Origin: Kiritimatiellia bacterium
GTDB taxonomy: Bacteria > Verrucomicrobiota > Kiritimatiellia > RFP12 > DVOR01
Assembly (NCBI GenBank): GCA_031552845.1
Contig: JAVBMC010000046.1
Coordinates: 863 to 64,862 of the forward strand
DNA: 64,000 nt
Direction: 5' to 3'
Position numbers and translations under genes: made by a program
Shown here: positions 1 to 44,600 of the stretch, piece after piece
How the letters are laid out: each line of letters begins with the position of its first letter
Position numbering within the stretch: the stretch's first letter is position 1
The notes under the pieces: model-generated
The model's database searches: none
Told to the model about the DNA's origin: nothing
Seen by the model: the letters and a program-made list of their open reading frames with translations, nothing else

Positions 1-1090
1 GGGCTATAAATCCAAAGGGTTGACGCGTACGGTGCCGGAGCAGGTGGTTTGGACAGCACCAGAGTCGCTGGAGAGGTTGCAGCAGATTGATCTTGGATTT
101 GCGTCGTTCTATCTGCCCAAGCGGGAGTGGTATACGGTTCACGCACGGCCAACGACAAACTCTCATACGTTTGCGGTGGGGATTTATGGTGATGGAGTTG
201 AAGTATGGTGTCACACTGTTGGCATGGCGGACTCGACTACGACTGAGTTTGCGGGGCAGCTTGGAGTAGAGAAGGCTGGCTTTGTGGATATTGAACTATT
301 TCTCGCGCAAACGCCGCCGGTATCGTGGCGCGAAGTCTTCAGTTTATCAAAAGAAGAGTTCACGATGCGGCTTGTCTATTTGACGATGAAGACCACAATG
401 TGTAGTTATCATCAATATATCGCTGAAGGTCCTCATTGCCGAGGACTTGGGGGTGGCGGGACATCTAACAGTAGCGCATTGGAGTTGACGGGAAAGCTGG
501 GATCCACATCAATTGTTTTGTATCTAGGCTCTCCAGATAATAAAGTCGAGGCATTAGCCAATATCATTGGCGGCACATTTACTTTCAAGGAGGATGTGCC
601 AGCAGAAGAGACCCCACTACGGCAGGCGGCATTCGTGGAACGGGTGCGGAAAGGCGAGGGCGATGATGCGCGGTTTATTGTTTTGAATCTAAAAGCGATG
701 CCGACGTTTCCGCTGGCGGATGCTTTAAAAGCTGCGGAGAGGCTGTTGGCGGCAGAAGGAATAGAGCGGCAATGCGCTTGGGCAGATTCGATGTTGTCCC
801 GCGATGGCGATGGATGGCTCTTGCGCTATGGGCCGAACAAAGAGGAGGGGTTTGGAGTGATTGTCACACCGGATTCGGCGCGGTTGATCAAAGACAGGCA
901 TTTGGCTGTTGAGTACGTGCCGTCACAGCCGATTGAGGATGTGCTGCCATTGATTGAACAAACTCCGGAACGGTTCACCGTCAGCGTCTATTCATCATAC
1001 GGAGAAAAGTGGGAGGCGCAGGTTTATGAAAGAGGCAACGGACATCCCAACACGGTATCATTGATTTCACCGCAGGATAAAACGGAGTAG
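1..1090 (+). CDS. Membrane-anchored paralog family member (5'-partial at window edge)
   Basis: Reading frame stays open to position 2 (GYKSKG precedes TRTVPEQ); the ORF-track start at 20 is a TTG. Shares motifs with 1094..2311 and 2844..4052: PESLE.LQRIDLGFASFYLPKREWY, AAFVERVRKGEGDDARFIV, MPTFPLADALKA, DGWLLRYGP. Confidence 0.7.
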   Translation, partial: GYKSKGLTRTVPEQVVWTAPESLERLQQIDLGFASFYLPKREWYTVHARPTTNSHTFAVGIYGDGVEVWCHTVGMADSTTTEFAGQLGVEKAGFVDIELFLAQTPPVSWREVFSLSKEEFTMRLVYLTMKTTMCSYHQYIAEGPHCRGLGGGGTSNSSALELTGKLGSTSIVLYLGSPDNKVEALANIIGGTFTFKEDVPAEETPLRQAAFVERVRKGEGDDARFIVLNLKAMPTFPLADALKAAERLLAAEGIERQCAWADSMLSRDGDGWLLRYGPNKEEGFGVIVTPDSARLIKDRHLAVEYVPSQPIEDVLPLIEQTPERFTVSVYSSYGEKWEAQVYERGNGHPNTVSLISPQDKTE

Positions 1091-1093
1091 AGA

Positions 1094-2311
1094 ATGCGTA
1101 TGTGTAAATTATGGCGTGGCATTGTTTATACGGCAATTGGGATAGTCCTGCTGGTGGTGTACGCGTATTACGGGTGGCGGATTTATGCGGTGGGGAAATT
1201 GGAGCGGGCATCGCGGGGTATCACGAAGTCTGTACCGGAGCATATGATGTGGAACGCACCGGAATCGTTGGAGAATCTGCAACGGATTGATCTTGGGTTC
1301 GCGTCGTTCTATTTGCCTCAGCGGGAGTGGTATATTATCCGAGCACTACCTGCGACATATAATCCGTCTACATCTTTTCTTGTGAGTATTTATGGGGAAG
1401 GGTTTTGGGTGCAACTGCTGAACGCAAGGGTCCCAAAGGAGGTGTATGTCCCGACGTTGGGCAAGACGTTGTCTGGCGGGGCAGAGGATTCTATATGGCT
1501 CTACTCGTTGCCACCGATCTCGTTAAGGGAGTTATTCTTTTTGCCGCATGATCAGTTTGTGAGCAGGGTGGCGTGCCTAAGTGAAAAAGATAGGGCATTT
1601 GGTGAAGGTGATCAGTATATTTTTGAGGGTCCTCATTCGCGAGGATATGGAAGAGTGGAAAAAGAAAGCTGGGGGCGTGGTGCCTTGGATGTGTGTGGCA
1701 ATCAGAATCCGCTGTCGGTATTCCTTATGTTTCGCGTGCTGAAAGAAAGCGGGCTGGCTCCGGAGTCTTTGCCGACGTTGATAGGCGGTACATTTGTCGT
1801 GGCTCCTGAGGCAAACATTGAAGAGGCACAGGTAGCTCAAGCAACATTTGTAGAGCGGGTGCGCAAGGGTGAAGGGGATGATGCGAGATTTATTGTTATG
1901 AATGAACGAACGATGCCGACGTTTCCGTTGGCGGATGCGTTAAAGGCTGGGAGAAAAGCCTTGCCGCCAGAATTGGCGGGGTTGCCATGTGTGAGCGCGC
2001 GTTCGGTGTTGTGCCGCGAGGATGACGGATGGTTCTTGGAGTATGGGAGTACTGTAGAGGGGAGGCAGGCGGTATTGGTGTCCTCAGAGGTGACGAAACT
2101 GATTAAGATAGTTTATTCCACGACGGAAGGTGTGCCGATTTGCCCAATGGAACAAATTGAATCGTTGCTTCAGCAGCAGCCCGATCGTTTTAAAACACGC
2201 GTGGAATGGCGTAATAACGAATGGAGGGCGTTGGGGTATTATACTGCCGATGGTGGGTTTAGCAGCATCAAGGAAGTTTTAGTGCCGACGCCATCTTCCC
2301 CCAGCCCTTAA
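1094..2311 (+). CDS. Membrane-anchored paralog family member B (unknown function)
   Basis: 405 aa with an N-terminal TM helix (IVYTAIGIVLLVVYAYYGW); alignable along its whole length with the other two copies. Confidence 0.75.
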   Translation: MRMCKLWRGIVYTAIGIVLLVVYAYYGWRIYAVGKLERASRGITKSVPEHMMWNAPESLENLQRIDLGFASFYLPQREWYIIRALPATYNPSTSFLVSIYGEGFWVQLLNARVPKEVYVPTLGKTLSGGAEDSIWLYSLPPISLRELFFLPHDQFVSRVACLSEKDRAFGEGDQYIFEGPHSRGYGRVEKESWGRGALDVCGNQNPLSVFLMFRVLKESGLAPESLPTLIGGTFVVAPEANIEEAQVAQATFVERVRKGEGDDARFIVMNERTMPTFPLADALKAGRKALPPELAGLPCVSARSVLCREDDGWFLEYGSTVEGRQAVLVSSEVTKLIKIVYSTTEGVPICPMEQIESLLQQQPDRFKTRVEWRNNEWRALGYYTADGGFSSIKEVLVPTPSSPSP

Positions 2312-2381
2312 GTTGTATAAGTCTGACTCTTGCCGTGATTTTGCTTATTAGACAGCTAACAGTTAGCATAAAAGGATAAGA

Positions 2382-2834
2382 ATGAAGTACCATTTAATTT
2401 CTGTGAGGGATTGTCCTGAATATCTTGAGCGTGCGGCGGAGTATTTTTCAGCGAAGTGGGATGTTGGCTACAGGGTTTATTTTGACAGCATCAAGCACAG
2501 TATCACTACGCCGAGTCCGCTGCCGCGGTGGTATCTGTTGGTGAATGATGGTGATGAGATTGTCGGCTGTTATAGTTTGGTCACAAATGATTTTAACAGC
2601 AGGCAGGATTTGTGGCCGTGGTTTTGTGCGTTGTATGTCGAGGAATCTGCGCGCGGGCAGAAGCTCGGGTCCATGATGCTTGAGCATGGTAAATGTGAGG
2701 CGAAGAAACTCGGCTTTGACACGGTGTATCTGGCGACTGATCTCGTGGGCTACTATGAAAAGTATGGCTTTACTTATCTGGCGCAGTGTTACGGGCTCGA
2801 TAATGAACAGCGTGTGTATGTGGCAACAGTCTGA
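2382..2834 (+). CDS. GNAT family N-acetyltransferase
   Basis: 150 aa. Acetyl-CoA binding-like core (CALYVEESARGQKLGSMMLEHGKCEAKKLGFDTVYLAT..YYEKYGF). RBS AAAGGATAAG precedes the ATG. Confidence 0.75.
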   Translation: MKYHLISVRDCPEYLERAAEYFSAKWDVGYRVYFDSIKHSITTPSPLPRWYLLVNDGDEIVGCYSLVTNDFNSRQDLWPWFCALYVEESARGQKLGSMMLEHGKCEAKKLGFDTVYLATDLVGYYEKYGFTYLAQCYGLDNEQRVYVATV

Positions 2835-2843
2835 GATTTAATT

Positions 2844-4052
2844 ATGCAAAAGAAGTTAGGACGAATCATCTTGTACGTAGTGGTGGGAGTATCACTGTTG
2901 TTGACGTGCGCGTATTATGGGTGGCGGATTTATGCGGTGGAAAAATTAGCGAGGGCATCGCAGGGCATCACGAAGTCTGTGCCGGAGCATGTGGTATGGA
3001 GCGAGCCGGTGTCGAAGGAAGGATTGCAGCGGATTGATGTAGGATTCGCTTCGTTCTGCGTGCCGAAGCGGGAGTGGTATACTGTGTACGCCAAATCGGT
3101 GAAGGAGCCGCCGCATTGGTTTGATGTCAGTATTTTTGGCGCTGATTTTATGGTACACTTGATGAATGTTTGGGTGCCGGAGCAGGGAGCTCTTGAAGTG
3201 CCAGGCGGGGTGATTGGCGATGGAGTGAGAGATTTTATGCAGCTTTATCAGACGCCGCCGTTGTCATGGCGGGAGATATTTTGTTTGTCGAATAGGGAGT
3301 TTCTGACACGGGTGAGTTGGCTAACGTTAAGGACTGAAGCGTGGATGCCCAATGGGACTACTTTTACGGGACCTTATTGCGAGGGAACGTTTGAAGTTTC
3401 CCCCTGGACGTCGGATGGCGGGTTGCTTGAGATTGGCGGGCTTCAGAAACCGACATCAATGACGATGGCATTTTATTGCTTGGAGGAAGGAGCTTTGCGT
3501 CCGGAATCGTTTGCAGAGTTGTTGGGGAGTACGTTTGTTTTTAATGACGAAGTGGACGTTTCTGATAAGCGGGTGCTGCAGGCGGCATTCGTCGAGCGGG
3601 TGCTGAAGGGCGAGGGCGATGATGCACGGTTTATTATGATGAACGTAAAGGCGATGCCGGTATTTCCGCTGGCGGATGCGTTGAAGGCGGCGAAGAAGTT
3701 GTTGGCGGCTGAGGGATTGGAGCGCCCATGCGTTTCGGCGAGTTCGACGTTATGCCGAGAGAGTGATGGTTGGCTGTTGAGATATGGACCAACCAAGGAA
3801 GAGGGATTCGCAGTGCTCGTGACGCCGGATTCGGTGCAGTTAATCAAAGATGCCTTTCTGGCCGACGAGGGCGTTCCTGCCCAGCCGATCGAAGAGGTGC
3901 TGCCATTGACCAAGCAAACCCCAGAACGCTTCGCTGTTGGCGTACGTTGGTATGGGGGGAAGTGGGATGCAAGGGTTTACGAGGCTGGCAATTGTGATCT
4001 GGGTTATGTGTCATTGGAGACTCTGCAGGAGTCGGCGGCGTCAACTCCCTAA
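2844..4052 (+). CDS. Membrane-anchored paralog family member C (unknown function)
   Basis: 402 aa with N-terminal TM (IILYVVVGVSLLLTCAYYGWRIYAV) and the same conserved blocks as copies A and B. The 3' flank CCTAAGTTGTGTAAGTTTGATT is nearly identical to the 3' flank of copy B. Confidence 0.75.
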   Translation: MQKKLGRIILYVVVGVSLLLTCAYYGWRIYAVEKLARASQGITKSVPEHVVWSEPVSKEGLQRIDVGFASFCVPKREWYTVYAKSVKEPPHWFDVSIFGADFMVHLMNVWVPEQGALEVPGGVIGDGVRDFMQLYQTPPLSWREIFCLSNREFLTRVSWLTLRTEAWMPNGTTFTGPYCEGTFEVSPWTSDGGLLEIGGLQKPTSMTMAFYCLEEGALRPESFAELLGSTFVFNDEVDVSDKRVLQAAFVERVLKGEGDDARFIMMNVKAMPVFPLADALKAAKKLLAAEGLERPCVSASSTLCRESDGWLLRYGPTKEEGFAVLVTPDSVQLIKDAFLADEGVPAQPIEEVLPLTKQTPERFAVGVRWYGGKWDARVYEAGNCDLGYVSLETLQESAASTP

Positions 4053-13834: not shown

Positions 13835-16243
13835 CTACTTAACAATGACGCGGGCGCCGTGTGTGTGTTGTAGCCGGTGTTGGGCTTGCAGGCGTTCATC
13901 AGGCGTCCAGGCGGTGCCGGTTTGGATGCAGGTGGGGCGTTCGGGGTCGGTGGAGTAAAGGACGTCTTCTGTCTCGATGCGCACAGGGTCGGTGCGTAGT
14001 GGCGAGTTGAACCGTTGGGTTGTATCAAGATAATAGTGTAAACGATATTGGCCTTGTGCCCCTTCGGTTTGAATTAGGCCGGTAAGCGGAAGAAAGATTT
14101 GCTGTAGGTCGCTGAGAGGTGAGCCGGGGGTAATGGGTTTGTCAGAGCGCAATTCGGCATCAAGCGTTCTGCCAAATATTTGAATGACAGTTACAAGATT
14201 ATTGCGGATGTCTGCAAGGAGTGTTTCTTCTTGAGCGGTAGCCTTGTTGAGAGCCAGCACGCGCAGGAGGTCGAGTTGTTGTAGCTTGAAGGATGGTGTT
14301 GACGTCTCTGTGTTTTCAAGATATTTATCCATCCAAGGTTTGCAGTTCAGCTCTAGTGCGAAGGGCGGGGCAAGTTCACGTAGCTGTGTGCCAATGGCGG
14401 CACCGTGTTCATTGTCAGAAGAATTGAGCGCGTCTTCTGCTTGGGTGTAGAGATTGAGCGTGAAGAGGCTCTTGCCGGGATAGCAGGATGCACGGCGCGG
14501 TGTCAGTGCGGCGAAGAGTCCTTGAGAAAATTGTTGGCCCTCACTCAAATAATTTAGAAGCGCATTGCCTGACTCGGCTGCAGACGGTGGTGTAAGGCTG
14601 AGTGACTTGTTCGAGAGAGCACCAGTCTCGGCATAGTGGTAGAGGTAGTCGGTGGGGGTGAGGTGCGAGACGTGCAGGTGTGTGTAAAGCGCTTCGACGG
14701 CGGCGGTGAGGTTGTGGAGCGCGTGCTTTTCAAGATCGTGATAGCGCAGGGCGATATCGGTTTGCAGGCGAGTGAAGTAACTTGCTGCGGGAGCAGGGTG
14801 ATCTCCGAATTGTGTAGTGAGGTTGAAATAGCGCGCGGCATTCTTCCATTGGCCAAGTTTGGCATAGGCCATGGCGAGGCGGTTGAGCGTCCAATTGATC
14901 GCTTGCGGATCGTCGTAGGTTGTGGCGCAGCCATCTTTCAGCCATTTGTGAAACGCAACGTGGTAGTCGGCGGCGGCTTGCTCGTAATTGCCGAGAGCAT
15001 GGTGAGCTTGAGCACGGGTGAAGTAAAGATCGGACTCTGCATGCTCGTCGGCGTCAACGGCGTATGAGCAGTCGGCAATGGCTTGTTGATAATCACCGTT
15101 GACGTAAGAGATGGTAGCTCGGTCGCTGTAATATTTGTTAAGATAGAAGGGCGGATTATTCTCTGGGCGAGTTAACGTGGTCAGCGCTTGCACATAGTCG
15201 CCTCGGGCATAATGGACGTAAGCAAGGTCGTCGCAGTCGGTTTTGGATCTTAGCGCAGCTTCTTGTGTGAAGTGTGCGAGAGCTAGTGCGAATTGCTTTT
15301 GCTCGATGTAGATGCATGCAAGGTCTTGGTGGGCATTTGCGCTGTGATCCCAGTGATCTTCATTTTCGGTGTCTTCCTCTGTTGCTAACTCGAGATAGGC
15401 GGTGAGGTCGGCAATGGCTTTTGAAAACTTCCGACAGATCATCAGGAGGTTGCCGCGGAGGTAGTATGCGGCGATTGTTTTTTCTTTGCTGGCCGCGCCG
15501 AGTATTTCGTTATACTGTTCAAGCGCCGGAGCGTATTGCTGAAGGAATCTGTAACACTCTGCGAGACGTAGGCGCGTCTTTGACGAAGCACCCTCCTCAA
15601 ACCACCATACGACTTTGCTGATCTCAATGGCTTTGAGATAGTCGAGAATTGCGCCTTCGTAGTCTTCGTCGAATTTTTCTGTGAGGGCATTGGCGTGGGC
15701 GAGGTAGGCGGAGCCGTGTTGCGGGTTGATGGCAATCGCACGGGAGAAGTCTTCAATGGAGCGGTCATCGTTGTCGCTCCATGTCGGGGGAGCGAATGTG
15801 ACTAAAGCGAGCCCACGATGGTAATAGGCTTCGGCATTGTTGGTGTCGAGTTCGATGGCTTTGTCGAGGTCGGCGAAAGCTTTTGCTTCATCGCCCAATT
15901 CGCGGTAAGCCCAGCCGCGGTTGGTATAGGCTTCGGAGTTGTTGGAGTTGAGTTGGATTGCTTGAGTGGCATCGGCAACGGCATGACGATAGTCTTTGAG
16001 TTCGTTGAACGGACGGGCGCGCCGACCATAAGCGGTTGAACGCTCGAGATCATTGGCGCCAGTTCGGACTGCAAAGGTATATTCGTTGATGGCGGATTTT
16101 TCCAAATGGTCTTCAAATGCAAAGTGATCGCCAAAGCCGATGTAGTCTGCGTGGGAGGAGTTCGGGTGAATGTTCTCCAGCTCCATGGCGTCCGTCTCGC
16201 GCACGAGCTTCTCAATCGGTATATCGTTCTTCTCCATAACCAT
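13835..16243 (-). CDS. TPR-repeat protein
   Basis: Many TPR units (AYTNRGWAYRELGDEAKAFADLDKAIELDTNNAEAYYHRGLAL). The preferred start is ATG at 16243 (MVMEKNDIPIEK) with SD AGGAGAGG. The track's extension to 16567 runs across a repeat-rich intergenic region and is probably not translated. Confidence 0.8.
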   Translation of the reverse strand: MVMEKNDIPIEKLVRETDAMELENIHPNSSHADYIGFGDHFAFEDHLEKSAINEYTFAVRTGANDLERSTAYGRRARPFNELKDYRHAVADATQAIQLNSNNSEAYTNRGWAYRELGDEAKAFADLDKAIELDTNNAEAYYHRGLALVTFAPPTWSDNDDRSIEDFSRAIAINPQHGSAYLAHANALTEKFDEDYEGAILDYLKAIEISKVVWWFEEGASSKTRLRLAECYRFLQQYAPALEQYNEILGAASKEKTIAAYYLRGNLLMICRKFSKAIADLTAYLELATEEDTENEDHWDHSANAHQDLACIYIEQKQFALALAHFTQEAALRSKTDCDDLAYVHYARGDYVQALTTLTRPENNPPFYLNKYYSDRATISYVNGDYQQAIADCSYAVDADEHAESDLYFTRAQAHHALGNYEQAAADYHVAFHKWLKDGCATTYDDPQAINWTLNRLAMAYAKLGQWKNAARYFNLTTQFGDHPAPAASYFTRLQTDIALRYHDLEKHALHNLTAAVEALYTHLHVSHLTPTDYLYHYAETGALSNKSLSLTPPSAAESGNALLNYLSEGQQFSQGLFAALTPRRASCYPGKSLFTLNLYTQAEDALNSSDNEHGAAIGTQLRELAPPFALELNCKPWMDKYLENTETSTPSFKLQQLDLLRVLALNKATAQEETLLADIRNNLVTVIQIFGRTLDAELRSDKPITPGSPLSDLQQIFLPLTGLIQTEGAQGQYRLHYYLDTTQRFNSPLRTDPVRIETEDVLYSTDPERPTCIQTGTAWTPDERLQAQHRLQHTHGARVIVK

Positions 16244-16335
16244 CCTCTCCTGCCGTGAAAGCAAACAGAGGTAGTGTAGCAGGATTCGCGGATTTTGCAA
16301 GTATGAAGGAGCTTTCGGCAACAAGTCCAAATAAG

Positions 16336-16535
16336 GCTCACGCGGAGACGCGGAGGCGCGGAAAGAAACTGACACGGTTGTTGGGCAGGGCGTGTTTCGC
16401 CGAAACCGCTGTGTGTGTTCGATGGAGTCGGTGAAATCGACGAAATCGCGTACTGTTTCTGGGAGCGCCGGCGTCCTCGCCGGCATTTGTGTGTGTCTCT
16501 CCTCTCTTTCCGCGCTTCCGCGTCTCCGCGTGAGC
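16336..16535. repeat. 30-bp inverted repeat pair (1 mismatch) enclosing ~140 bp; MITE-like or long hairpin
   Basis: GCTCACGCGGAGACGCGGAGGCGCGGAAAG at 16336..16365 and its reverse complement (one A/G difference) at 16506..16535. The enclosed segment contains the GTTTCGCCGAAAC palindrome. Confidence 0.6.
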
Positions 16536-16587
16536 TTCTTCTTCCCCTTGTCTTTATTGAGGTTCATTCTTCCGCAAACTTTCCCTC

Positions 16588-16615
16588 TTGACTTACTCCT
16601 TAATTCTGCTAAACT
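16588..16615 (+). promoter_or_regulatory. Sigma70-type promoter (TTGACT-N16-TAAACT) for HU-like gene copy 1
   Basis: TTGACT 16588..16593 and TAAACT 16610..16615. The same element and flanks are found at 41921..41948 upstream of copy 2. Confidence 0.55.
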
Positions 16616-16897
16616 GCATCCCCGTTGACCCCATTGAGTGACTCGTCACTGATTCGGATCTTGAGGCTCGGAGTTCCAAGCGAATCTCCGCCCCCCGACA
16701 TACGAGAGCTTAAGCTCCAAGGAGCCATCAACTATAAAGACTGCCCGTTTGGCCGGCGTGCAGTCCAGATGCCAGGGGGATATCCACCAATCGCACGAGT
16801 GTGCTGTATGGTTTATTCGGAATCGCTTTGGCGTCGGGTTGACAGACGCCGCCGACTGCCAGCATCAACTATAGGCGGCAAGAAAGAACAAGACATC

Positions 16898-17638
16898 ATG
16901 TCAACAACAACAAACGAGCCCACCAGCTCGATTCAGGTACAAATCGTCAAGCCCGTCTCCGGCGAGCTTGTTAAGGACGGACTGCAGACGGTGAAAGCCA
17001 TCTCCCGCAGCACCGTCTCCAACGCCCAGCTCCTCGACTTCATGGTCGGCGACGGCGGCGGCATCAGCAAACCTCAAGCCAAGGCTTTTTACGAAGCCTA
17101 TGCAGACACCGTCAGCCGGTTGCTCCTCGCGGGACACAACATCCCCGTGGGCGACCTCGGTTACCTGCACGTCACGGCCAAAGGCGTGTTTGATGCGGAA
17201 GGTAAACCCGTGGAAGGTAAAGAGCTGATCTTCAAGATCAAGTTCCTGCCCAAGAAGGTCGTCAAAAACCTTCTGGCGAACCTGCCCTATGAAACCGTCG
17301 AAGCTCACGACCGCCAGCCCCGTCTGAATACGGTGACCGACAGCATTACGCTGAACGTCAACTCCGTCGTCACACGCGGGATGTCGGCCAAGCTCAACGG
17401 CAAGAACCTCAAATTCCACCCCCTCGTGGCTGACGAAGGCCTCTTCTTCGTTCCCGTCGAGGGTGGAGCTGCGGTCAAGGTCACCCAATTCCTCGACAAC
17501 CGCGACGTACGTCTCACGTTCAACGTGCCGGGTGAACTCACGGAAGGCACCAACTACCGCCTCGAAGTGCGCAAACGCTTCAGCGGGTGCAAGGCCTTAC
17601 GTATCGGAACCCTTGAGAACACGCTCAGCGTGAACTAA
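16898..17638 (+). CDS. HU-like DNA-binding protein (Bacteroidetes-type HU_2 N-terminus) with DUF4469-like Ig-fold C-terminal domain, copy 1
   Basis: 246 aa starting MSTTTNEP. Overall architecture and the C-terminal block HPLVADEGLFFVPVEGG match the DUF4469-type family. The ORF-track upstream extension (16625) runs through a leader that is conserved at the nucleotide level but not in reading frame. Confidence 0.55.
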   Translation: MSTTTNEPTSSIQVQIVKPVSGELVKDGLQTVKAISRSTVSNAQLLDFMVGDGGGISKPQAKAFYEAYADTVSRLLLAGHNIPVGDLGYLHVTAKGVFDAEGKPVEGKELIFKIKFLPKKVVKNLLANLPYETVEAHDRQPRLNTVTDSITLNVNSVVTRGMSAKLNGKNLKFHPLVADEGLFFVPVEGGAAVKVTQFLDNRDVRLTFNVPGELTEGTNYRLEVRKRFSGCKALRIGTLENTLSVN

Positions 17639-17671: not shown

Positions 17672-17710
17672 AGGGGCAGGCGCCACATCGGCGTCTGCCC
17701 CTTTTTTATT
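17672..17710 (+). terminator. Rho-independent terminator
   Basis: GGGGCAGGCGCC-ACATC-GGCGTCTGCCCC followed by TTTTTTATT. Confidence 0.7.
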
Positions 17711-17777
17711 CCCAAGACGTATCATAAAAACACGCATGTTGAAAATGTGCGAGGCACGTGGTACAAAAGTTTGACGA

Positions 17778-17865: not shown

Positions 17866-18074
17866 ACGTCGCGGGACGCCAACATGAGACATCAGGTAAT
17901 GAGTGAGAAGTAATAGGTAATAAGTGTGAGAGGTATAGTGAAAATACTGAAAGAAGATGGAATAAAAGTTCATGTAGAGAAAATTGTCCTAAGACGGCAC
18001 AGATCCAAACAGATAATGGGAAAAGCAGTCAGTAAAGGTGATAGATAATACGTGGGGGAGACTAAACGCGGTAC

Positions 18075-18153
18075 GGCGGTTTCGGCGAAACCTACCCTAC
18101 CTTTGAGAGTAGGGCTGACGCGGTTGTTGGGTAGGGCGATGTTCGCCGAGCGC
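18075..18153. repeat. Palindrome-plus-hairpin repeat element (GGCGGTTTCGGCGAAAC ... CCCTACC-TTTGAGA-GTAGGG ... GTTCGCCGAGCGC)
   Basis: 13-bp perfect palindrome GTTTCGGCGAAAC at 18079..18091, followed by hairpin CCCTACCTTTGAGAGTAGGG. Related copies at 16393..16408 (reverse complement), 41841..41856 and 43207..43248. Confidence 0.7.
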
Positions 18154-21509: not shown

Positions 21510-24500
21510 ATGAAATATTCGGTTCTATTACGCTTCAATTTTTTTGCTTGCGCCAGTTTGGTTATGGCCGCTTGGGTACACAGCGCGGTGACTACGGTTA
21601 CTACCCTCGATTCGACCGAAGTACAAACTGAGGCCATTCACCCGCTCCTCGCGACGCAAAAGATCGTACGGGTACAAGGCGGCCTAGATATTGCACACGA
21701 CTTGACCGTCCAAGGCAACACCCATTTGGCAACAGGTATGCTTCTGGTTCCGCCGCTGGGCGATGTGTCTATGGGGAGTTTTACAAACGATCTAACTGAG
21801 GCTCCGGCTTGGTGGTCCGACTATGGCGTAATCAACCCCGAGAGCCAGCCGAATGACTATGCGGCGGTTATACAAGGGCAAGTCAAGTGGATGGCTCTTT
21901 GTGCGGCTGAAATGCTGAATGACGTGTTGCGTTATGTTGGCGGTGCCGGTGAAGCGGTTAATGATTTGGTTGACTCATTGACGTTGGGCAATAACACATT
22001 GCCAACCAGCTTAGGACAGCTTAAAAATACGGCATTGCCGTTCTGGGAGCGGATGATTCAGGTTGGATTAGTGGAGGAACTGCCATGGCAGGGCGAGAGC
22101 AGCGATTACAGCATTGCTAGTATTGGACAAGCTAAATATTTGTTCAATTTGCCCCTAGATGCCACGGACTCGGATGGCGATGGCTTGCCTGATTTTCTTG
22201 AACGGCTTTTAGGCACTGATCCTCTTGTCGCCGATAGCGATAATGACGGATTGTCCGATGGTTGGGAGGTTGAGCACGGCTTTGATCCGCTGGATGCAAC
22301 GGATGCTCTACGCGATAGTGACAATGACGGGATGCCCGATGCGTGGGAAATACAGCATAATCTAAACCTAAATGACGCAAGTGATGCCCTTCTTGATCCT
22401 GATTGTGACGGGCTGACTAACTTGGAAGAATACCGAAACGGCACCCACCCGTTCAACTCCGATACAGACGGAGACGGCTTTACGGATGGTTGGGAAGTGA
22501 TGGTTGGCCTCAAGCCTCTTGACCCGATGGATGGGGCAAGCATGATGGCCAATCTTCCGCCACAGGCGAATATTCCGATGGCGTGCTTTACCAACCATCT
22601 AGACACAAACTATCCGGTCGATCTTTCTCCTAGTCCGCTCAACCCTTGGTATGTTGCGTGTGATTATACAAAACTTTGGTGGATGAATGATGGTTTGCTT
22701 GCTACGGTGATTGGCAATAATGATTTTGCTGCCGTCACACAAGGGCAAGCGAAACTGCTATTCGCGAAAGCCGCTGAGCGCGTTGACCATGTATTTCGTT
22801 TTGCTGGAGGAGCAGGCGATGAAATTCGTGGGTTTATTGAATCCTTGCCTGCGGCTAATGATGACCTGCCGGTTACGGTCGGCATACTTCAAACAGGGAT
22901 CAATTGTTTTCAGAACCGATTCAAACAAATTTCGGCGATGCCATCTTCTCTGAATTCGCCATGGCTGAATGACATCCAGCTGATCGATTATTTTTTAGAG
23001 GAGACTTGGAGCCATTATCCGGCTAATGTCGGACAACTCAAATCATTGGTTCTATTTTCGGGACTCTTAGAAGATACTGATGATGACGGATTTCCAGACG
23101 TACTTGAGCTTTGCTGGTACGCAACTAGGCCTGAAAATCCTGATTGTGATGATGATGGCTTGTTGGATGGCGAAGAAATATTTACTTATGGTACAGAGCC
23201 ATGGGCATGGGATACAGACGGTGATTATTTTTCAGACGGATGGGAGGTTGAACATGGCTTTGATCCATGGGGGCCAAACGATGCACAATCAATCGACAGT
23301 GATAATGATGGAATACCGGATGCGTATGAACTCTATTGGTTTGGTGATTTAGAGACGGTTAGCGGAAATTATTGTACCGAGTCAGGGTTTATGTTGAGCG
23401 CCTTACTTGCACATAAAGCAGGAGCCTCGCATCACATGTACGAGTACGGGCCAACTCCGTGGGACAATCCGCTCTATGATTTCTATGAATCTGACGAGAA
23501 TGTGAGAGGCATTCAACTTGTTAATTACTTTGGTCTATGGCCATTGCAATACATGACAGATGTGGTTTATGAGCGAACTTTTTCCATTGACCCAAGGCCG
23601 GGACAACACGTTTTTATTGCGGACTCTGCAAGGAATGGGAGCGTTTTCGGATTGTGTGCCTTGCTGTTGGAATGGGAAGATTCAAACGGTAAGCGAGGTG
23701 AGATATGGGGCGGATGGTACGACGGCTTCATTCGACTTCCCGTCTCGCTTTACAATTTGACCTCTATTACGATTCGCTTGAGAGCAACCGGTGGATTTGG
23801 TTCACAGTGTACTTGTACTCCAATCGATCTTTTATTCATCACCGATGAAGCTTGGGCGATAGATAGTGATGGCGATGGATTGACAGATGTGTTGGAAGAG
23901 GAGTATGGAACCGACCCGCTCGTGTATGACACTGACGGGGATGGGTTGTCAGATGGATTGGAAATTACCTTCGGAACCAATCCGCTCCTAGCAGATAGTG
24001 ACGGGGATGGACAGTTAGATGGTTGGGAGGTCGCTCACTTGACCGATCCGCTGAATGCGAAGGGCGGTGTGCTACTCGACACGGATGGCGATGGCATGCC
24101 CGATCTCTGGGAACAGTTTTACGGATTGGATCCATTTGATCCCACGGATGCGGATTTAGACCCGGATGGAGATGGCTTGACGAATTGGCAGGAACTCCAA
24201 GCCGGAACCTATCCCTTCGTTTGGGATACGGATGGTGATGGCATGCCGGATGGCTGGGAAGTCGAACATGGGTTGAATCCCTTGAATCCTGATGACGCGT
24301 TACTGGATGCGGACAATGACGGGCTTACGAATCTTGAGGAGTTTCAGAAAGGGAGCAATCCGAATCGGGTCGATAGCGATGGTGACGGATTTGCTGACAA
24401 ATGGGAACTGGACAATGGCTTTAATCCCGCTGCTCCGGGCGATGTGACGGTTGACAGCAATAATAATGGTTTCGATGATGATGAAGAAAACCGTTGGGGC

Positions 24501-24668
24501 GCAGACCGCCCCGCGCCAACAGATGATCCCTCTAGGACAATCCGTTATTATTACGACGACGATGATCGCTTGATAGGCAGCTATTTCGGCGCTTCCCAAA
24601 GCGCGACCACGACAATTTATTCCCCTGCCGGTAACCCAATCATGAGACACACAAGAGGTTCAAAATGA
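21510..24668 (+). CDS. Large secreted protein with multiple thrombospondin type-3-like Ca-binding repeat blocks (D.D.DG..D..E) and an internally duplicated ~120-aa module
   Basis: Signal peptide. More than 25 D.D.DG..D motifs (for example TDSDGDGLPDFLE, DSDNDGLSDGWEVEHGFDPLD, DPDCDGLTNLEEY). Repeated module DYAAVIQGQVK...GGAGE...GQLK. An N-terminal GDVSMGSFTN motif is shared with the LamG proteins. The 3' end overlaps the RHS gene start. Confidence 0.75.
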   Translation: MKYSVLLRFNFFACASLVMAAWVHSAVTTVTTLDSTEVQTEAIHPLLATQKIVRVQGGLDIAHDLTVQGNTHLATGMLLVPPLGDVSMGSFTNDLTEAPAWWSDYGVINPESQPNDYAAVIQGQVKWMALCAAEMLNDVLRYVGGAGEAVNDLVDSLTLGNNTLPTSLGQLKNTALPFWERMIQVGLVEELPWQGESSDYSIASIGQAKYLFNLPLDATDSDGDGLPDFLERLLGTDPLVADSDNDGLSDGWEVEHGFDPLDATDALRDSDNDGMPDAWEIQHNLNLNDASDALLDPDCDGLTNLEEYRNGTHPFNSDTDGDGFTDGWEVMVGLKPLDPMDGASMMANLPPQANIPMACFTNHLDTNYPVDLSPSPLNPWYVACDYTKLWWMNDGLLATVIGNNDFAAVTQGQAKLLFAKAAERVDHVFRFAGGAGDEIRGFIESLPAANDDLPVTVGILQTGINCFQNRFKQISAMPSSLNSPWLNDIQLIDYFLEETWSHYPANVGQLKSLVLFSGLLEDTDDDGFPDVLELCWYATRPENPDCDDDGLLDGEEIFTYGTEPWAWDTDGDYFSDGWEVEHGFDPWGPNDAQSIDSDNDGIPDAYELYWFGDLETVSGNYCTESGFMLSALLAHKAGASHHMYEYGPTPWDNPLYDFYESDENVRGIQLVNYFGLWPLQYMTDVVYERTFSIDPRPGQHVFIADSARNGSVFGLCALLLEWEDSNGKRGEIWGGWYDGFIRLPVSLYNLTSITIRLRATGGFGSQCTCTPIDLLFITDEAWAIDSDGDGLTDVLEEEYGTDPLVYDTDGDGLSDGLEITFGTNPLLADSDGDGQLDGWEVAHLTDPLNAKGGVLLDTDGDGMPDLWEQFYGLDPFDPTDADLDPDGDGLTNWQELQAGTYPFVWDTDGDGMPDGWEVEHGLNPLNPDDALLDADNDGLTNLEEFQKGSNPNRVDSDGDGFADKWELDNGFNPAAPGDVTVDSNNNGFDDDEENRWGADRPAPTDDPSRTIRYYYDDDDRLIGSYFGASQSATTTIYSPAGNPIMRHTRGSK

Positions 24669-41744: not shown

Positions 41745-41840
41745 TTGTGTGAATCACGGCGCGGCGCGTTCAGTCACTCTTCCCCTTGGGAGCGCGGGCA
41801 TTCCTGCTCGCATGATGTTTGTGTGTGCGTCAGCGGGTGC

Positions 41841-41856
41841 GGCGGTTTCGGCGAAG
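41841..41856. repeat. GGCGGTTTCGGCGAAG palindrome-family repeat (5' flank of HU-like copy 2)
   Basis: Same motif as 18075 and 16393. Preceded by GGGTGC as in the 43202 copy. Confidence 0.6.
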
Positions 41857-41920: not shown

Positions 41921-41948
41921 TTGACTTATCCCCTTAATCTGCTAAACT
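41921..41948 (+). promoter_or_regulatory. Sigma70-type promoter (TTGACT-N16-TAAACT) for HU-like gene copy 2
   Basis: Nucleotide-identical core to 16588..16615. Followed by a ~250-nt leader about 85-90% identical to the copy 1 leader. Confidence 0.55.
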
Positions 41949-42197
41949 GCAACCCCGTTGACCCCATTGGGTGACTCGTCACTGACGCATGGCGCATACG
42001 AGAATCCAAGCTCCAAGGAGCCATCAACTATAAAGGACAGCCCGTTTGGCCGGCGTGCAGTCCAGATGCCAGGGGGATATCCACCATCGACGCGAGTGCG
42101 TCAATCGGTCTACTTCGGAATCGCCATGGCATCGGGCTGACAGACGCCGCCGGCTGTCAGCTTAACACTTCAAGGCGGCAGTTAGGAAATTAAAACC

Positions 42198-42908
42198 ATG
42201 GCTATTCGATATCACTTAGGGCCCGCGCTGCGGGCGGATCGGGCGGCGGCGGGCGAGATGATTGTGCATTCATCCACCGCACTGCGCATTCAGCAAGAGG
42301 AACTCGCCGACGAACTCGTCCGCCAAGGGACAACCGTGCGCCGCGCCGATGTGCTGGCCGTACTCGATAATCTCGGACTCGCGGTGGGGCACCTGTGCGC
42401 CCGCGGCATTGCGGTTTCAATTCCGAATCTCGGCACCATGACCCCGCGCGCTCGGGGCGTGGTCGATCGCAACGGCGCGTGGGTCCGCCCGCTGGAGGGG
42501 TACTTGACGCTACAAGCCGACCGCGGGCTGGAGGCTGTTTTCAATCAACACGCAAAGTTCCAAGAAGTCCCCCGCAAACCGGTACGCGCCATCATTCGGC
42601 GGATTTTCAACGTAACTGCCGCTCCGGGAGATGTCCGGCTCGTGCCGGGTGATGTGTTCGAAGTACAAGGCCGGCATTTACGGTTCAATGCCGCCGCGGC
42701 CGATGAAGGGATTTTTCTGAAACGCGCCGAGGGTTCAACTACGGAGGAGGTCAAGGTGATCGAGGTTTGGCCCCAGACCCCCTCGCGGGTACTCTTCCGC
42801 GTGCCGACCACAATCATGCCCGGGGACTGGTTATTAGAGGTGCGGGTCCGCCAAAAGGACTGTTCACGCGTAACCGTGTCCGAACCGCAAATTATTTTGA
42901 CCTGTTGA
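42198..42908 (+). CDS. HU-like DNA-binding protein with DUF4469-like C-terminal domain, copy 2
   Basis: MAIRYHL N-terminus typical of Bacteroidetes-type HU_2 family proteins. C-terminal NAAAADEGIFLKRAEG block parallels copy 1. RBS-like AGGAAATTAAAACC precedes the ATG. Confidence 0.55.
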   Translation: MAIRYHLGPALRADRAAAGEMIVHSSTALRIQQEELADELVRQGTTVRRADVLAVLDNLGLAVGHLCARGIAVSIPNLGTMTPRARGVVDRNGAWVRPLEGYLTLQADRGLEAVFNQHAKFQEVPRKPVRAIIRRIFNVTAAPGDVRLVPGDVFEVQGRHLRFNAAAADEGIFLKRAEGSTTEEVKVIEVWPQTPSRVLFRVPTTIMPGDWLLEVRVRQKDCSRVTVSEPQIILTC

Positions 42909-42935
42909 CCGCTCCGTTTATATGTGCGTACGCTT

Positions 42936-43045
42936 CACGGGCTTGCAACCCCGTCATCACGGGCTTCGAACCCCGCGCCCGCGGGCTTGCAAGCCCCACC
43001 CGATGGGCTTATAAGCCCGTGGACGCAGGCTTATAACCCCGCACG
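42936..43045. repeat. Five tandem 22-bp repeats, each a small palindrome (GGGCTTGCAAGCCC / GGGCTTATAAGCCC type), downstream of HU-like copy 2
   Basis: Unit starts at 42936, 42958, 42980, 43002 and 43024, exact period 22. Unit shape nnnGGGCTTnnAAnCCCnnnnn. Confidence 0.8.
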
Positions 43046-43206
43046 CAGATAGTGCGTGTTGCGGTGTTGTTCAACCAGTGCTGCGGCACTTGCGCACGGT
43101 TGGTGCAGTGCGGAATCAATCGCATTAGCCCTGCTGGCTCCATCTCATGACTTCTCCGATTTTCACCGACTTCTTCGATAATGTTGTGGGTGCGGCGGTC
43201 TCGGCG

Positions 43207-43248
43207 AAACGCGCCCTACCTTTTGGAAGTAGGGCTGGCGCGGGCATG
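43207..43248. repeat. Palindrome-plus-hairpin repeat element (GGCGGTCTCGGCGAAAC..GCCCTACC-TTTTGGAA-GTAGGGC)
   Basis: Homologous to 18075..18113. Flanked by ~32-bp direct repeats (approx. 43132..43166 and 43268..43302: C.GGCTCCA.CTC..GACTTC.CCG). Confidence 0.65.
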
Positions 43249-43541: not shown

Positions 43542-43570
43542 TTGACCCTCTCCTAAGAAAATGCTAAACT
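43542..43570 (+). promoter_or_regulatory. Sigma70-type promoter TTGACC-N17-TAAACT with A-rich UP-like tract; long leader
   Basis: The A-tract at 43511..43530 precedes the -35. The -10 context TGCTAAACT is the same as in the HU-like promoters. About 220-nt leader before ATG 43800. Confidence 0.5.
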
Positions 43571-43799
43571 TACGGCGTTTTCGAAGCACAGGATGATTCC
43601 GGACATGGTGTCCGAGCCTAGGTCAAAGGGTACCGATGGATGTTATCTGAATGTGAATCGAAGGTTACAGTAACTGCCCGACGGCGTCACGTAGCGAGTG
43701 CTGCGAGAGGTGCCGGGAGGCGAAACAACCCTGAGGGGATATCTGCTGTGAGTGAGTTTCAGCAAGCAAGACCTCGGGAAACTCAGGAGTAATTACTCA

Positions 43800-44600
43800 A
43801 TGAAGAAATTAATGGGATTCGCTGCGGCGATGGCACTCGTTGGCGGTGCGTTTGCAGATTGCACTCTGCCGACAGAGACGACCGATGTGGAGGCGCTTGT
43901 TTATGACTTTGCGGTCACGTTGAAGACCACGAAGGCAAAGCTCGTCACGTTGAAGGATACGCAGGTTCCTTGCGATTTGCCGATCGCGGGTGGAGCAATT
44001 GTTTATCGGGACAACGGGGCAACTCTGAAGTATCAGGGTTTCTATTGGACTTGTGATCCGTCTTGTGTTGATTCGCCTCAGTTTGATGTGCCGCCTTATA
44101 CTTTCGAGTATTGGAACACGACAGAGAAGGTGGTCTTGGCTAATGCGGTTAACGCTGACGTCAGCGCGACTGCTCCTACTTGGAGTGTTCTCAACATCAT
44201 TGGTTCGCCCAGCAAGATGAGCAAGGTCGAGGCTGCGTTTGATACTCTGACTTGGACGGATCTCGAACGTACGAGTGCTTCAGTAGCCAATGGTGCTGGT
44301 TTTGGCACATACGATAGCAAGTACAATCGTGTGAAGACAATCAGCGGTTACGTGGTTGCCACTATGGCACCTCCGTACTATCCGCACACTGTTGGCGATC
44401 TTGTTTGCCCGCCTGCAGTTGCGTTTACTCCTTGTTCCTATGACGAGAACGACAATCCGACGGTTGGTTATGGAACTTGGTCGCTTAAGTACAATGCGTC
44501 TGCTTCAAAGAAGCTCGCGAAGATGGGGCAAGTGGCTGGCGTTCCTGCGCTGATGCCGAGCTGGGCACGTGTACAACGTGTGCCGGTCGAACTTGACTAA
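43800..44600 (+). CDS. Secreted Cys-containing hypothetical protein
   Basis: ATG 43800, signal peptide MKKLMGFAAAMALVGGAFA. 266 aa with no recognisable domain. Confidence 0.55.
   Translation: MKKLMGFAAAMALVGGAFADCTLPTETTDVEALVYDFAVTLKTTKAKLVTLKDTQVPCDLPIAGGAIVYRDNGATLKYQGFYWTCDPSCVDSPQFDVPPYTFEYWNTTEKVVLANAVNADVSATAPTWSVLNIIGSPSKMSKVEAAFDTLTWTDLERTSASVANGAGFGTYDSKYNRVKTISGYVVATMAPPYYPHTVGDLVCPPAVAFTPCSYDENDNPTVGYGTWSLKYNASASKKLAKMGQVAGVPALMPSWARVQRVPVELD

Follow-up and report, generated by a model that had tools for sequence, protein, structure and literature searches.

In a window of 64,000 nucleotides (nt) from a Kiritimatiellia bacterium (contig JAVBMC010000046.1 of assembly GCA_031552845.1, positions 863 to 64,862 of the forward strand), a promoter and the untranslated leader behind it are present twice, at 16588-16897 (copy A) and at 41921-42197 (copy B). 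Each leader copy lies directly 5' of one gene for an HU-like protein of the HU-HIG/DUF4469 type. As judged from sequence comparison, the leader appears to be a genuine new structured 5' leader that falls outside the catalogued RNA families. We estimate a probability of roughly 60% that it is a cis-acting structured 5' untranslated region (UTR) that places both paralogs under one post-transcriptional input. An earlier note on this DNA had favored a structured RNA over a peptide, and we arrive at the same view: reading frames are broken between the copies, both copies form the same helices, base pairs that changed are kept as pairs, and the leader evolves slowly between orthologs. The fold has been kept while the coding sequences behind it diverged to about random nucleotide identity.

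Two homologous leaders precede the HU-like genes

The earlier note had also described a leader shared by both HU-like genes. This leader is real and its two copies are homologous, as both an alignment and an exact repeat show. The leader proper covers 16616-16897 in copy A and 41949-42197 in copy B. The 3' end proposed for copy A was right as well, since the ATG of gene A lies at 16898. The copies have in common an exact stretch of 39 nt (at 16751 and 42048) that recurs nowhere else in the 64-kb window, and shuffled sequences lead us to expect none. From promoter to ATG, the mean column identity between the copies is 83% in a MAFFT alignment. The core block (alignment columns 97-175) agrees at 77 of 79 positions, the 3' half of the leader at 66 of 93 (71%), and the spacer before the ATG at 8 of 18. 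Similarity begins about 14 nt 5' of the common -35 box and reaches as far as the last hairpin ahead of each start codon; hence, the promoter belongs to the repeat. The 150 nt 5' of the promoter are 65% identical between the copies, compared to 60 +/- 2% for shuffles. This residual similarity is a common dispersed intergenic repeat, separate from the leader. An nhmmer search of the window with a profile of copies A and B matches these two copies only; there is no third one.

Some details of the earlier description have to be corrected. What had been read as an insertion of about 60 nt is 37 nt long in the alignment (copy A, 16661-16697). A supposed single-base indel, CCACCAATCGCACGAG versus CCACCATCGACGCGAG, is a cluster of substitutions: both stretches are 16 nt long, and the changes rebuild a hairpin (GCAC-GAGU-GUGC versus GACGC-GAGU-GCGUC). 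The true frame-breaking indels between the copies fall at alignment columns 46-82 (37 nt), 124 (1 nt), 202 (1 nt), and 251-252 (2 nt).

Promoter and transcript

The promoter of copy A (16588-16615, + strand) consists of a -35 box TTGACT at 16588-16593, a 16-nt spacer ending in TGc (an extended -10), and a -10 box TAAACT at 16610-16615. The promoter of copy B (41921-41948, + strand) reads TTGACT-16-TGcTAAACT. The hexamers, the TG, and the 9 nt 5' of them (CTTTCCCTC) are identical in the two copies. The copy A promoter is the only sigma-70-like site in 16200-17000, and each promoter is the only promoter-like site upstream of its gene. Between the conserved promoter and the ATG there is neither room nor signal for a second promoter.

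Transcription probably starts near 16622 in copy A and near 41955 in copy B. With these starts, about 276 nt of the copy A leader (16616-16897, + strand) would be transcribed as untranslated sequence ending at the ATG of gene A, and about 243 nt of the copy B leader (41949-42197, + strand) would be transcribed. The last part of the copy A leader (16879-16897, + strand) is a purine-rich spacer with a weak ribosome-binding site (RBS; AAGAAAGAA). This spacer lacks conservation and is predicted to be unpaired. Behind gene A, at 17673-17712, there is a GC-rich hairpin that resembles a terminator and has a T-run (GGGGCAGGCGCC...GGCGTCTGCCCCTTTTTT; read by eye from the sequence, with no terminator scan made there), and copy B is preceded by a terminator-like hairpin of the upstream gene. 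With these hairpins on the flanks, each unit looks like a promoter, a leader, and a single gene, which suggests that gene A is monocistronic.

The next gene 3' of gene B (43752-44600, no Pfam match) has a near-identical promoter, TTGACC-N15-TGCTAAACT, at 43542-43570. It has its own leader of about 180 nt, the sequence of which is unrelated to the HU-like leaders. This form of promoter may be the organism's strong housekeeping consensus.

Coding potential of the leader

The earlier note had observed that the reading frame is not preserved, and this is borne out: indels of 37, 1, 1, and 2 nt break every reading frame between the copies. In six-frame translations of A and B, the only peptide stretches in common are those that fall within the identical block of nucleotides. 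Both copies contain an AAGGAG that resembles a Shine-Dalgarno (SD) sequence, as had been pointed out, and in neither copy does a canonical start codon (no ATG) follow it. The motif forms the loop and the 3' arm of a predicted hairpin (P3, see below).

One could still argue that the leader is coding, either for a small protein or for additional N-terminal residues of the HU-like protein. The frame of copy A is open from 16625 into gene A, giving an open reading frame (ORF) of 337 amino acids (aa); the public record (P0008) calls gene A as a 276-aa protein from an ATG at 16808 inside the leader, which amounts to a 30-aa extension; and copy B holds a 60-aa ORF. However, the ORF of copy B stops where the frame of copy A continues, and the copy B frame ends before the gene. 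The relatives of gene A (92-73% identity) are called at 246-247 aa, and the extension is found only in the window's own record. The 276-aa call is probably a start-site misannotation. Nor does the translated leader have relatives: frame +1 of leader A belongs to no family among 1.84 billion representative proteins, where the single match is an unrelated 664-aa protein, and a protein search with all six frames of leader B joined into one query finds nothing at E<=10 among 8000 candidates. We give a coding leader practically no credence.

Predicted secondary structure

Independent minimum free energy (MFE) folds of copies A and B give the same helices (z = -1.9 and -2.7, respectively). The RNAalifold consensus has 64 pairs and comprises a three-way junction (P1-P3), an irregular hairpin of about 105 nt (P4), and a small hairpin (P5), all on the + strand. 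Its pairs were assessed on an alignment of three rows, namely copies A and B and 118 nt of an ortholog (L002, described below).

In copy A the 5' domain with the three-way junction spans 16624-16732, both in the consensus and when the domain is folded by itself. P1 has 5 base pairs (GUUGA 16624-16628 with UCAAC 16728-16732) and is invariant. P2 has 11 base pairs (16634-16646 with 16702-16713), with one two-sided and three one-sided wobble changes between A and B. The 37-nt insertion specific to copy A (16661-16697, alignment columns 46-82) sits at the tip of P2 and extends the stem in the MFE fold. P3 (GCUC-CAAG-GAGC, 16714-16725) is invariant and holds the SD-like AAGGAG, which is partly buried. 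The junction is an invariant single strand, CAUCAACUAUAAAG. P4 (16749-16855) is a long irregular hairpin of 32+3+4 pairs in both MFE and consensus folds, and its tip hairpin GCAC-GAGU-GUGC (16793-16804) contains two compensatory pairs. P5 (CUGCC...GGCGG, 16856-16878) shows one wobble change; as read from the sequence, GGCGGC could alternatively pair with GCCGCC at the base of P4. In the consensus fold of copy B, P1 pairs 41957-41961 with 42024-42028, P2 pairs 41967-41979 with 41998-42009, P3 occupies 42010-42021, P4 occupies 42046-42153 with its tip hairpin at 42090-42101, and P5 occupies 42154-42178.

The differences between the copies respect this fold. Over the three rows, 99.3% of the consensus-pair cells are canonical; shifting the partners by 1-3 columns lowers this share to 28-41%. 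Eleven of the 64 pairs differ between A and B, and all 11 are still paired; none is broken. Two-sided changes account for three pairs, of which one belongs to P2 and the other two to the P4 tip (GCAC/GUGC to GACGC/GCGUC). The remaining eight changed on one side, always from G-C or A-U to G-U on the + strand. These one-sided changes would be A-C mismatches on the - strand and are thus consistent with the orientation of promoter and gene. In the body of P4 there are four one-sided changes, all on the 3' strand, while the 5' strand is invariant. This one-strand variation points either way, to an extra constraint on the 5' strand or to a gene-conversion tract.

Folds of single copies give a similar picture. 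When the fold of B is imposed on A, 11 of 18 changed pairs are kept, with 5 double changes; when the fold of A is imposed on B, 9 of 15 are kept, with 4 double changes. The pairs broken in these tests lie mostly outside the consensus helices. Three candidate pairings were rejected: an MFE pairing of copy A, GUUGACCC/GGGUUGAC, and a local hairpin GACUGC...GCAGUC are both mismatched in copy B, and a pairing of the P5 loop with the 5' GUUGA is lost in the ortholog.

Selection on the leader

We could use one ortholog, L002. It belongs to a related species sequenced in the same run and encodes a protein 73% identical to that of gene B. Its contig starts inside the leader, so that only the last 118 nt are comparable. 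Over the structured 3' 101 nt, copy B and L002 are identical at 95 positions (94%). At four-fold sites in the first 95 codons of the gene, 15 of 63 differ (24%; Fisher p = 0.0014 compared to 6 of 101 in the leader), and over the whole of gene B it is 43 of 106 (p = 3e-9). The unstructured spacer before the ATG has 3 changes in 17 positions and an indel, which is roughly the neutral rate. In this comparison the leader evolves about 4 times more slowly than the adjacent four-fold sites and is therefore under purifying selection.

Two Logan contigs, L002 and L003 (the latter carrying gene B), start at the same leader base, position 42081 of the window (ATCCACCATCGACG). Evidently the assembly graph branches at this base, the upstream sequence being shared between species and/or paralogs.

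Distribution

The leader appears to be narrowly distributed and limited to a few related uncultured genomes. An exact leader 22-mer has no match in the GTDB representative genomes, and a protein-guided scan of the same genomes finds no relatives. IMG/VR viral contigs yield nothing with two DNA patterns and two protein-guided scans, and neither does a blastn search against phages and plasmids. In JGI metagenomes the leader 20-mer CAGTCCAGATGCCAGGGGGA has two matches, both by chance and both inside purE (L004 370-389 and L005 4558-4577); we rejected them as leader copies, because the 20-mer there encodes the purE motif SVQMPGGVP. Close relatives of genes A and B themselves are few as well: 5.8 billion protein clusters contain just a handful for each gene.

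A more distant homolog of the HU/DUF4469 type, 30% identical, was found on a JGI metagenome contig (L001, 2659-3000). It is preceded by an untranslated leader of about 300 nt and a promoter TTGACT-17-TATATT. We rejected this leader as a member of the group on account of its lack of sequence similarity and its different predicted fold. Long leaders may be common for the HU/DUF4469 gene family.

The HU-like genes and their surroundings

Gene A (16898-17638, + strand) encodes a 246-aa HU-like protein with a DUF4469 immunoglobulin (Ig)-like C-terminal domain (PF14734, E=4e-15). The PF14734 match passes with 56 bits; PF18291 is sub-threshold with 22.9 bits, and PF14848 is below its cut-off too. Its orthologs are 92, 84, and 73% identical. 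Gene B (42198-42908, + strand) encodes a 236-aa HU-HIG/DUF4469 protein, with 28.1 bits for PF18291 (cut-off 26.2) and 37.6 bits for PF14734 (cut-off 22.6, E=2e-9), and it matches PDB 4FMR (E=3e-4). Identity between the two proteins is 24-26%; for the coding DNA it is 43%, essentially the level of random sequence. The best explanation is that genes A and B are anciently diverged HU-HIG/DUF4469 paralogs. The window is chromosomal, with NusA, IlvD, MscS, and giant proteins of the PATR and Laminin_G_3 types.

The HU-HIG clade has been described as fast-evolving, with lineage-specific expansion and turnover, without operon partners, and as a possible participant in genetic conflicts (Burroughs et al. 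2017, PMC5499826). For its Ig-fused members, binding of RNA or protein instead of DNA has been proposed (PMC5499826). The parts of that paper considered here do not mention a conserved leader RNA for the clade. A literature search on DUF4469 found nothing.

Gene B is a mosaic when compared to its ortholog (42198-42908 versus L002 119-829). The first 95 codons, which encode the HU domain, have 92% nucleotide identity, compared to 61% in the DUF4469 Ig-like half, where four-fold divergence is 65%. Such a pattern could come from recombination, from a swap of domains, or from diversifying selection that acts on the Ig-like domain. The neighborhood 3' of gene B differs as well, with an HTH_3 gene in L002 and none found in the window.

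The intergenic regions flanking both HU-like genes contain a dispersed element similar to repetitive extragenic palindromes (REP-like), AAGG[TC]AGGGCG[CT]GTTTCGCCGAAACCGC[CT]G. It has a palindromic core and occurs in both orientations, at 16386-16412 (+), 18060-18095 (-), and 43180-43215 (-), and partially at 41835-41855. Three copies are followed by GTCGGTGAAATCGAnGAAGTCG, and the core has 6 matches where 0.9 are expected. A 25-nt inverted repeat (16341-16365 and 16506-16530, CGCGGAGACGCGGAGGCGCGGAAAG and CTTTCCGCGCTTCCGCGTCTCCGCG, complementary at 24 of 25 positions) brackets about 140 nt with a REP-like element 5' of the copy A promoter; it is absent at copy B. Just 3' of gene B lies a tandem array (42935-43048) of about 5 units with a period of 22 nt, containing the 14-nt palindrome GGGCTTGCAAGCCC or a variant of it. 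L002 has one perfect copy of GGGCTTGCAAGCCC (860-873), and there too the distance from the stop codon is 31 nt. The array could be a terminator or a protein-binding array. Elsewhere in the window, 20-4052 contains three tandem paralogous genes of about 400 aa each (repeat families D1, D2, and D4), and 21510-24668 is a 1052-aa ORF with acidic repeats rich in GAT/GAC-GGN (families D3 and D5), of the DxDGDG type by eye.

What the leader could do

Searched with the 4227 models of Rfam 15, the whole window has no match at the gathering threshold. At E<=10 the copy A region has only three chance-level matches, which lie outside or at the edge of the leader, and copy B has none. The earlier note had suggested an attenuator or a thermometer among other options, and neither finds support in the sequence. 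There is no + strand intrinsic terminator within 16616-16897 or 41949-42197, and P5 is followed by AAGAAAG (A) or AGUUAGG (B), not by U's; without an internal terminator the leader does not qualify as a classical attenuator. The RBS and the AUG are predicted to be largely unpaired in both copies, with a mean unpaired probability over -25..+3 of 0.61 (A) and 0.51 (B), compared to 0.39 and 0.35 in the rest of the leader. Hence, there is no SD-masking platform of the kind used by thermometers or riboswitches.

A free RBS, the lack of a terminator, and invariant single strands together with one invariant helix strand make a platform for a macromolecule the most likely option; this pattern fits a macromolecule better than a small-molecule switch. 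The leader is probably a binding platform for a protein. In the mechanism we propose, a strong extended -10 promoter would drive monocistronic messenger RNAs (mRNAs) headed by a folded untranslated leader, and the leader would serve as a platform for a trans-acting macromolecule, giving shared control of both paralogs at the level of translation or mRNA stability. The likeliest partner would be a protein, either the HU-like products themselves or a shared regulator. A cis-regulatory role is plausible, to judge from the position of the leader. A near-constant leader in front of proteins that are only 24% identical implies a common control input, and it offers a defined RNA for binding tests with HU-HIG proteins. 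Its general importance is likely to be modest, unless structurally similar leaders precede HU-HIG genes elsewhere.

A bolder version is that the leader founds an RNA class that is specifically recognized by Ig-fused HU-HIG proteins, serving as a feedback operator or forming the RNA part of a ribonucleoprotein (RNP). We consider this quite unlikely. If it were true, the leader would be the first concrete nucleic-acid ligand for a large and fast-evolving protein family.

Several observations weigh against a cis-acting structured leader. The comparative base is thin: only copies A and B are complete, and the ortholog L002 adds 118 nt. On these three rows, covariation as high as that observed turns up in 34 of 500 shuffles, so that covariation support for the fold is suggestive but not significant; P1 and P3 do not vary at all between the copies and hence carry no covariation signal. 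The MFE is equally good on the - and the + strand and does not separate them. Neither a terminator nor masking of the RBS was found in the leaders, which leaves them without an expression platform. Self-regulation is not self-evident for two proteins that share so little sequence (24% identity). The near-identical block of the paralogs could reflect gene conversion and not constraint. Finally, the half of the gene that encodes the HU domain is itself unusually conserved at synonymous sites (24% divergence versus 65% for the Ig-like part); this may mean that the neutral rate is low in the region, or that leader and HU domain travel as a module.

Alternative explanations

The alternative that we take most seriously, although we think it unlikely, is a cassette of promoter and UTR that has been homogenized by gene conversion between the paralogs (concerted evolution, a "mobile promoter"). 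Its conservation would then stem from recent copying, and its fold would be incidental or generically stabilizing, for example as a shield of a highly expressed mRNA against RNases. Identity drops in a step from the core (77/79) to the 3' half (71%), as it would in a conversion tract, and the variation in P4 is all on the 3' strand, outside the identical block. The lack of an expression platform fits as well, and so does the expansion and turnover within lineages for which HU-HIG genes are known (PMC5499826). Conversion accounts less well for the 5' region, where P2 differs at 5 positions, all of them paired, and has a 37-nt indel at its tip, while the flanking junction is identical. It also leaves unexplained why the orthologs are 94% identical in the leader, compared to 76% at four-fold sites. 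In the 3' half the orthologs (94%) are closer to each other than the paralogs are (71%), which is what we would expect for old copies that are separately constrained. One could also argue that the element is a stand-alone or processed noncoding RNA of about 250 nt, co-transcribed and then released, which acts as the RNP partner of HU-HIG-Ig proteins or as a small RNA in trans. The structured part does end about 20 nt before the ATG, the spacer beyond it is unconserved, and sequence conservation is far above what structure alone needs; the proposal by Burroughs et al. that Ig-fused HU-HIG proteins bind RNA or protein (PMC5499826) points in the same direction. Yet no terminator or recognizable processing site separates leader and gene, each copy is found strictly 5' of an HU-like gene, and the 64 kb contain no solitary copy. 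A released RNA is thus decidedly unlikely.

For a metabolite riboswitch of a new class, the general layout would be right, since junctions and loops are invariant, stems vary, a peripheral helix varies in length, and the element sits in a 5' UTR. It is very improbable all the same: Rfam has no riboswitch match, there is neither a terminator nor an SD-sequestering platform, the genes encode nucleoid- or conflict-type DNA-binding proteins and not metabolic or transport functions, and an aptamer of about 250 nt would be a large one. The distribution is also very narrow, with searches of the collections mostly empty and two of them returning unrelated matches only. An operator at the level of DNA would be a long imperfect inverted repeat that forms bent or cruciform DNA bound by the HU-like proteins. 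HU-family proteins do have a preference for distorted or cruciform DNA, the - and + strands fold with equal stability, and one arm of P4 is invariant. The eight one-sided changes to G-U, which are A-C on the other strand, and several invariant G-U pairs would weaken a cruciform, however, and neither the three-way junction nor the compensatory changes have a rationale at the DNA level. We see scarcely any chance for this option.

Comparison with known systems

The 5' UTRs of the cspA family in E. coli are leaders of about 160 nt with a "cold box" that is common to cspA/B/G/I. As in our case, paralogs for small nucleic-acid-binding proteins have an unusually long, highly conserved, structured 5' UTR behind a strong promoter. 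The cspA UTR controls the fate of the mRNA instead of terminating transcription. There is no sequence or Rfam similarity to the leader described here, and the coding sequences behind it are far more diverged than those of the csp paralogs.

Ribosomal-protein leaders (L1, L10, L20, S15) are similar in that a structured 5' leader precedes a gene for a nucleic-acid-binding protein. Their product binds its own mRNA and represses translation, and such leaders usually resemble the natural RNA target of the protein and extend over the RBS. The present leader, in contrast, matches no such Rfam family, leaves the RBS free at a distance of about 20 nt, and is shared by two proteins that are 24% identical.

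The genes themselves resemble the HU-HIG clade: both encode an HU-like N-terminal and a DUF4469 Ig-like C-terminal domain, stand alone, and have diverged rapidly as paralogs. The clade is presented in PMC5499826 as a radiation of Bacteroidetes, whereas the chromosome here looks like one of the Planctomycetes-Verrucomicrobia-Chlamydiae (PVC) group, to judge from PATR and Laminin_G_3.

As an RNA, the leader is reminiscent of the orphan motifs of the Weinberg/Breaker type in Rfam, which share with it conserved intergenic sequence, variable stems, invariant junctions, and a consistent association with genes. It differs from them in that it is not in Rfam 15 and is defined by 2-3 sequences instead of dozens. 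By analogy, we would place it as an orphan structured 5' leader, the nearest functional analogues of which would be the cspA UTRs and the ribosomal-protein leaders.

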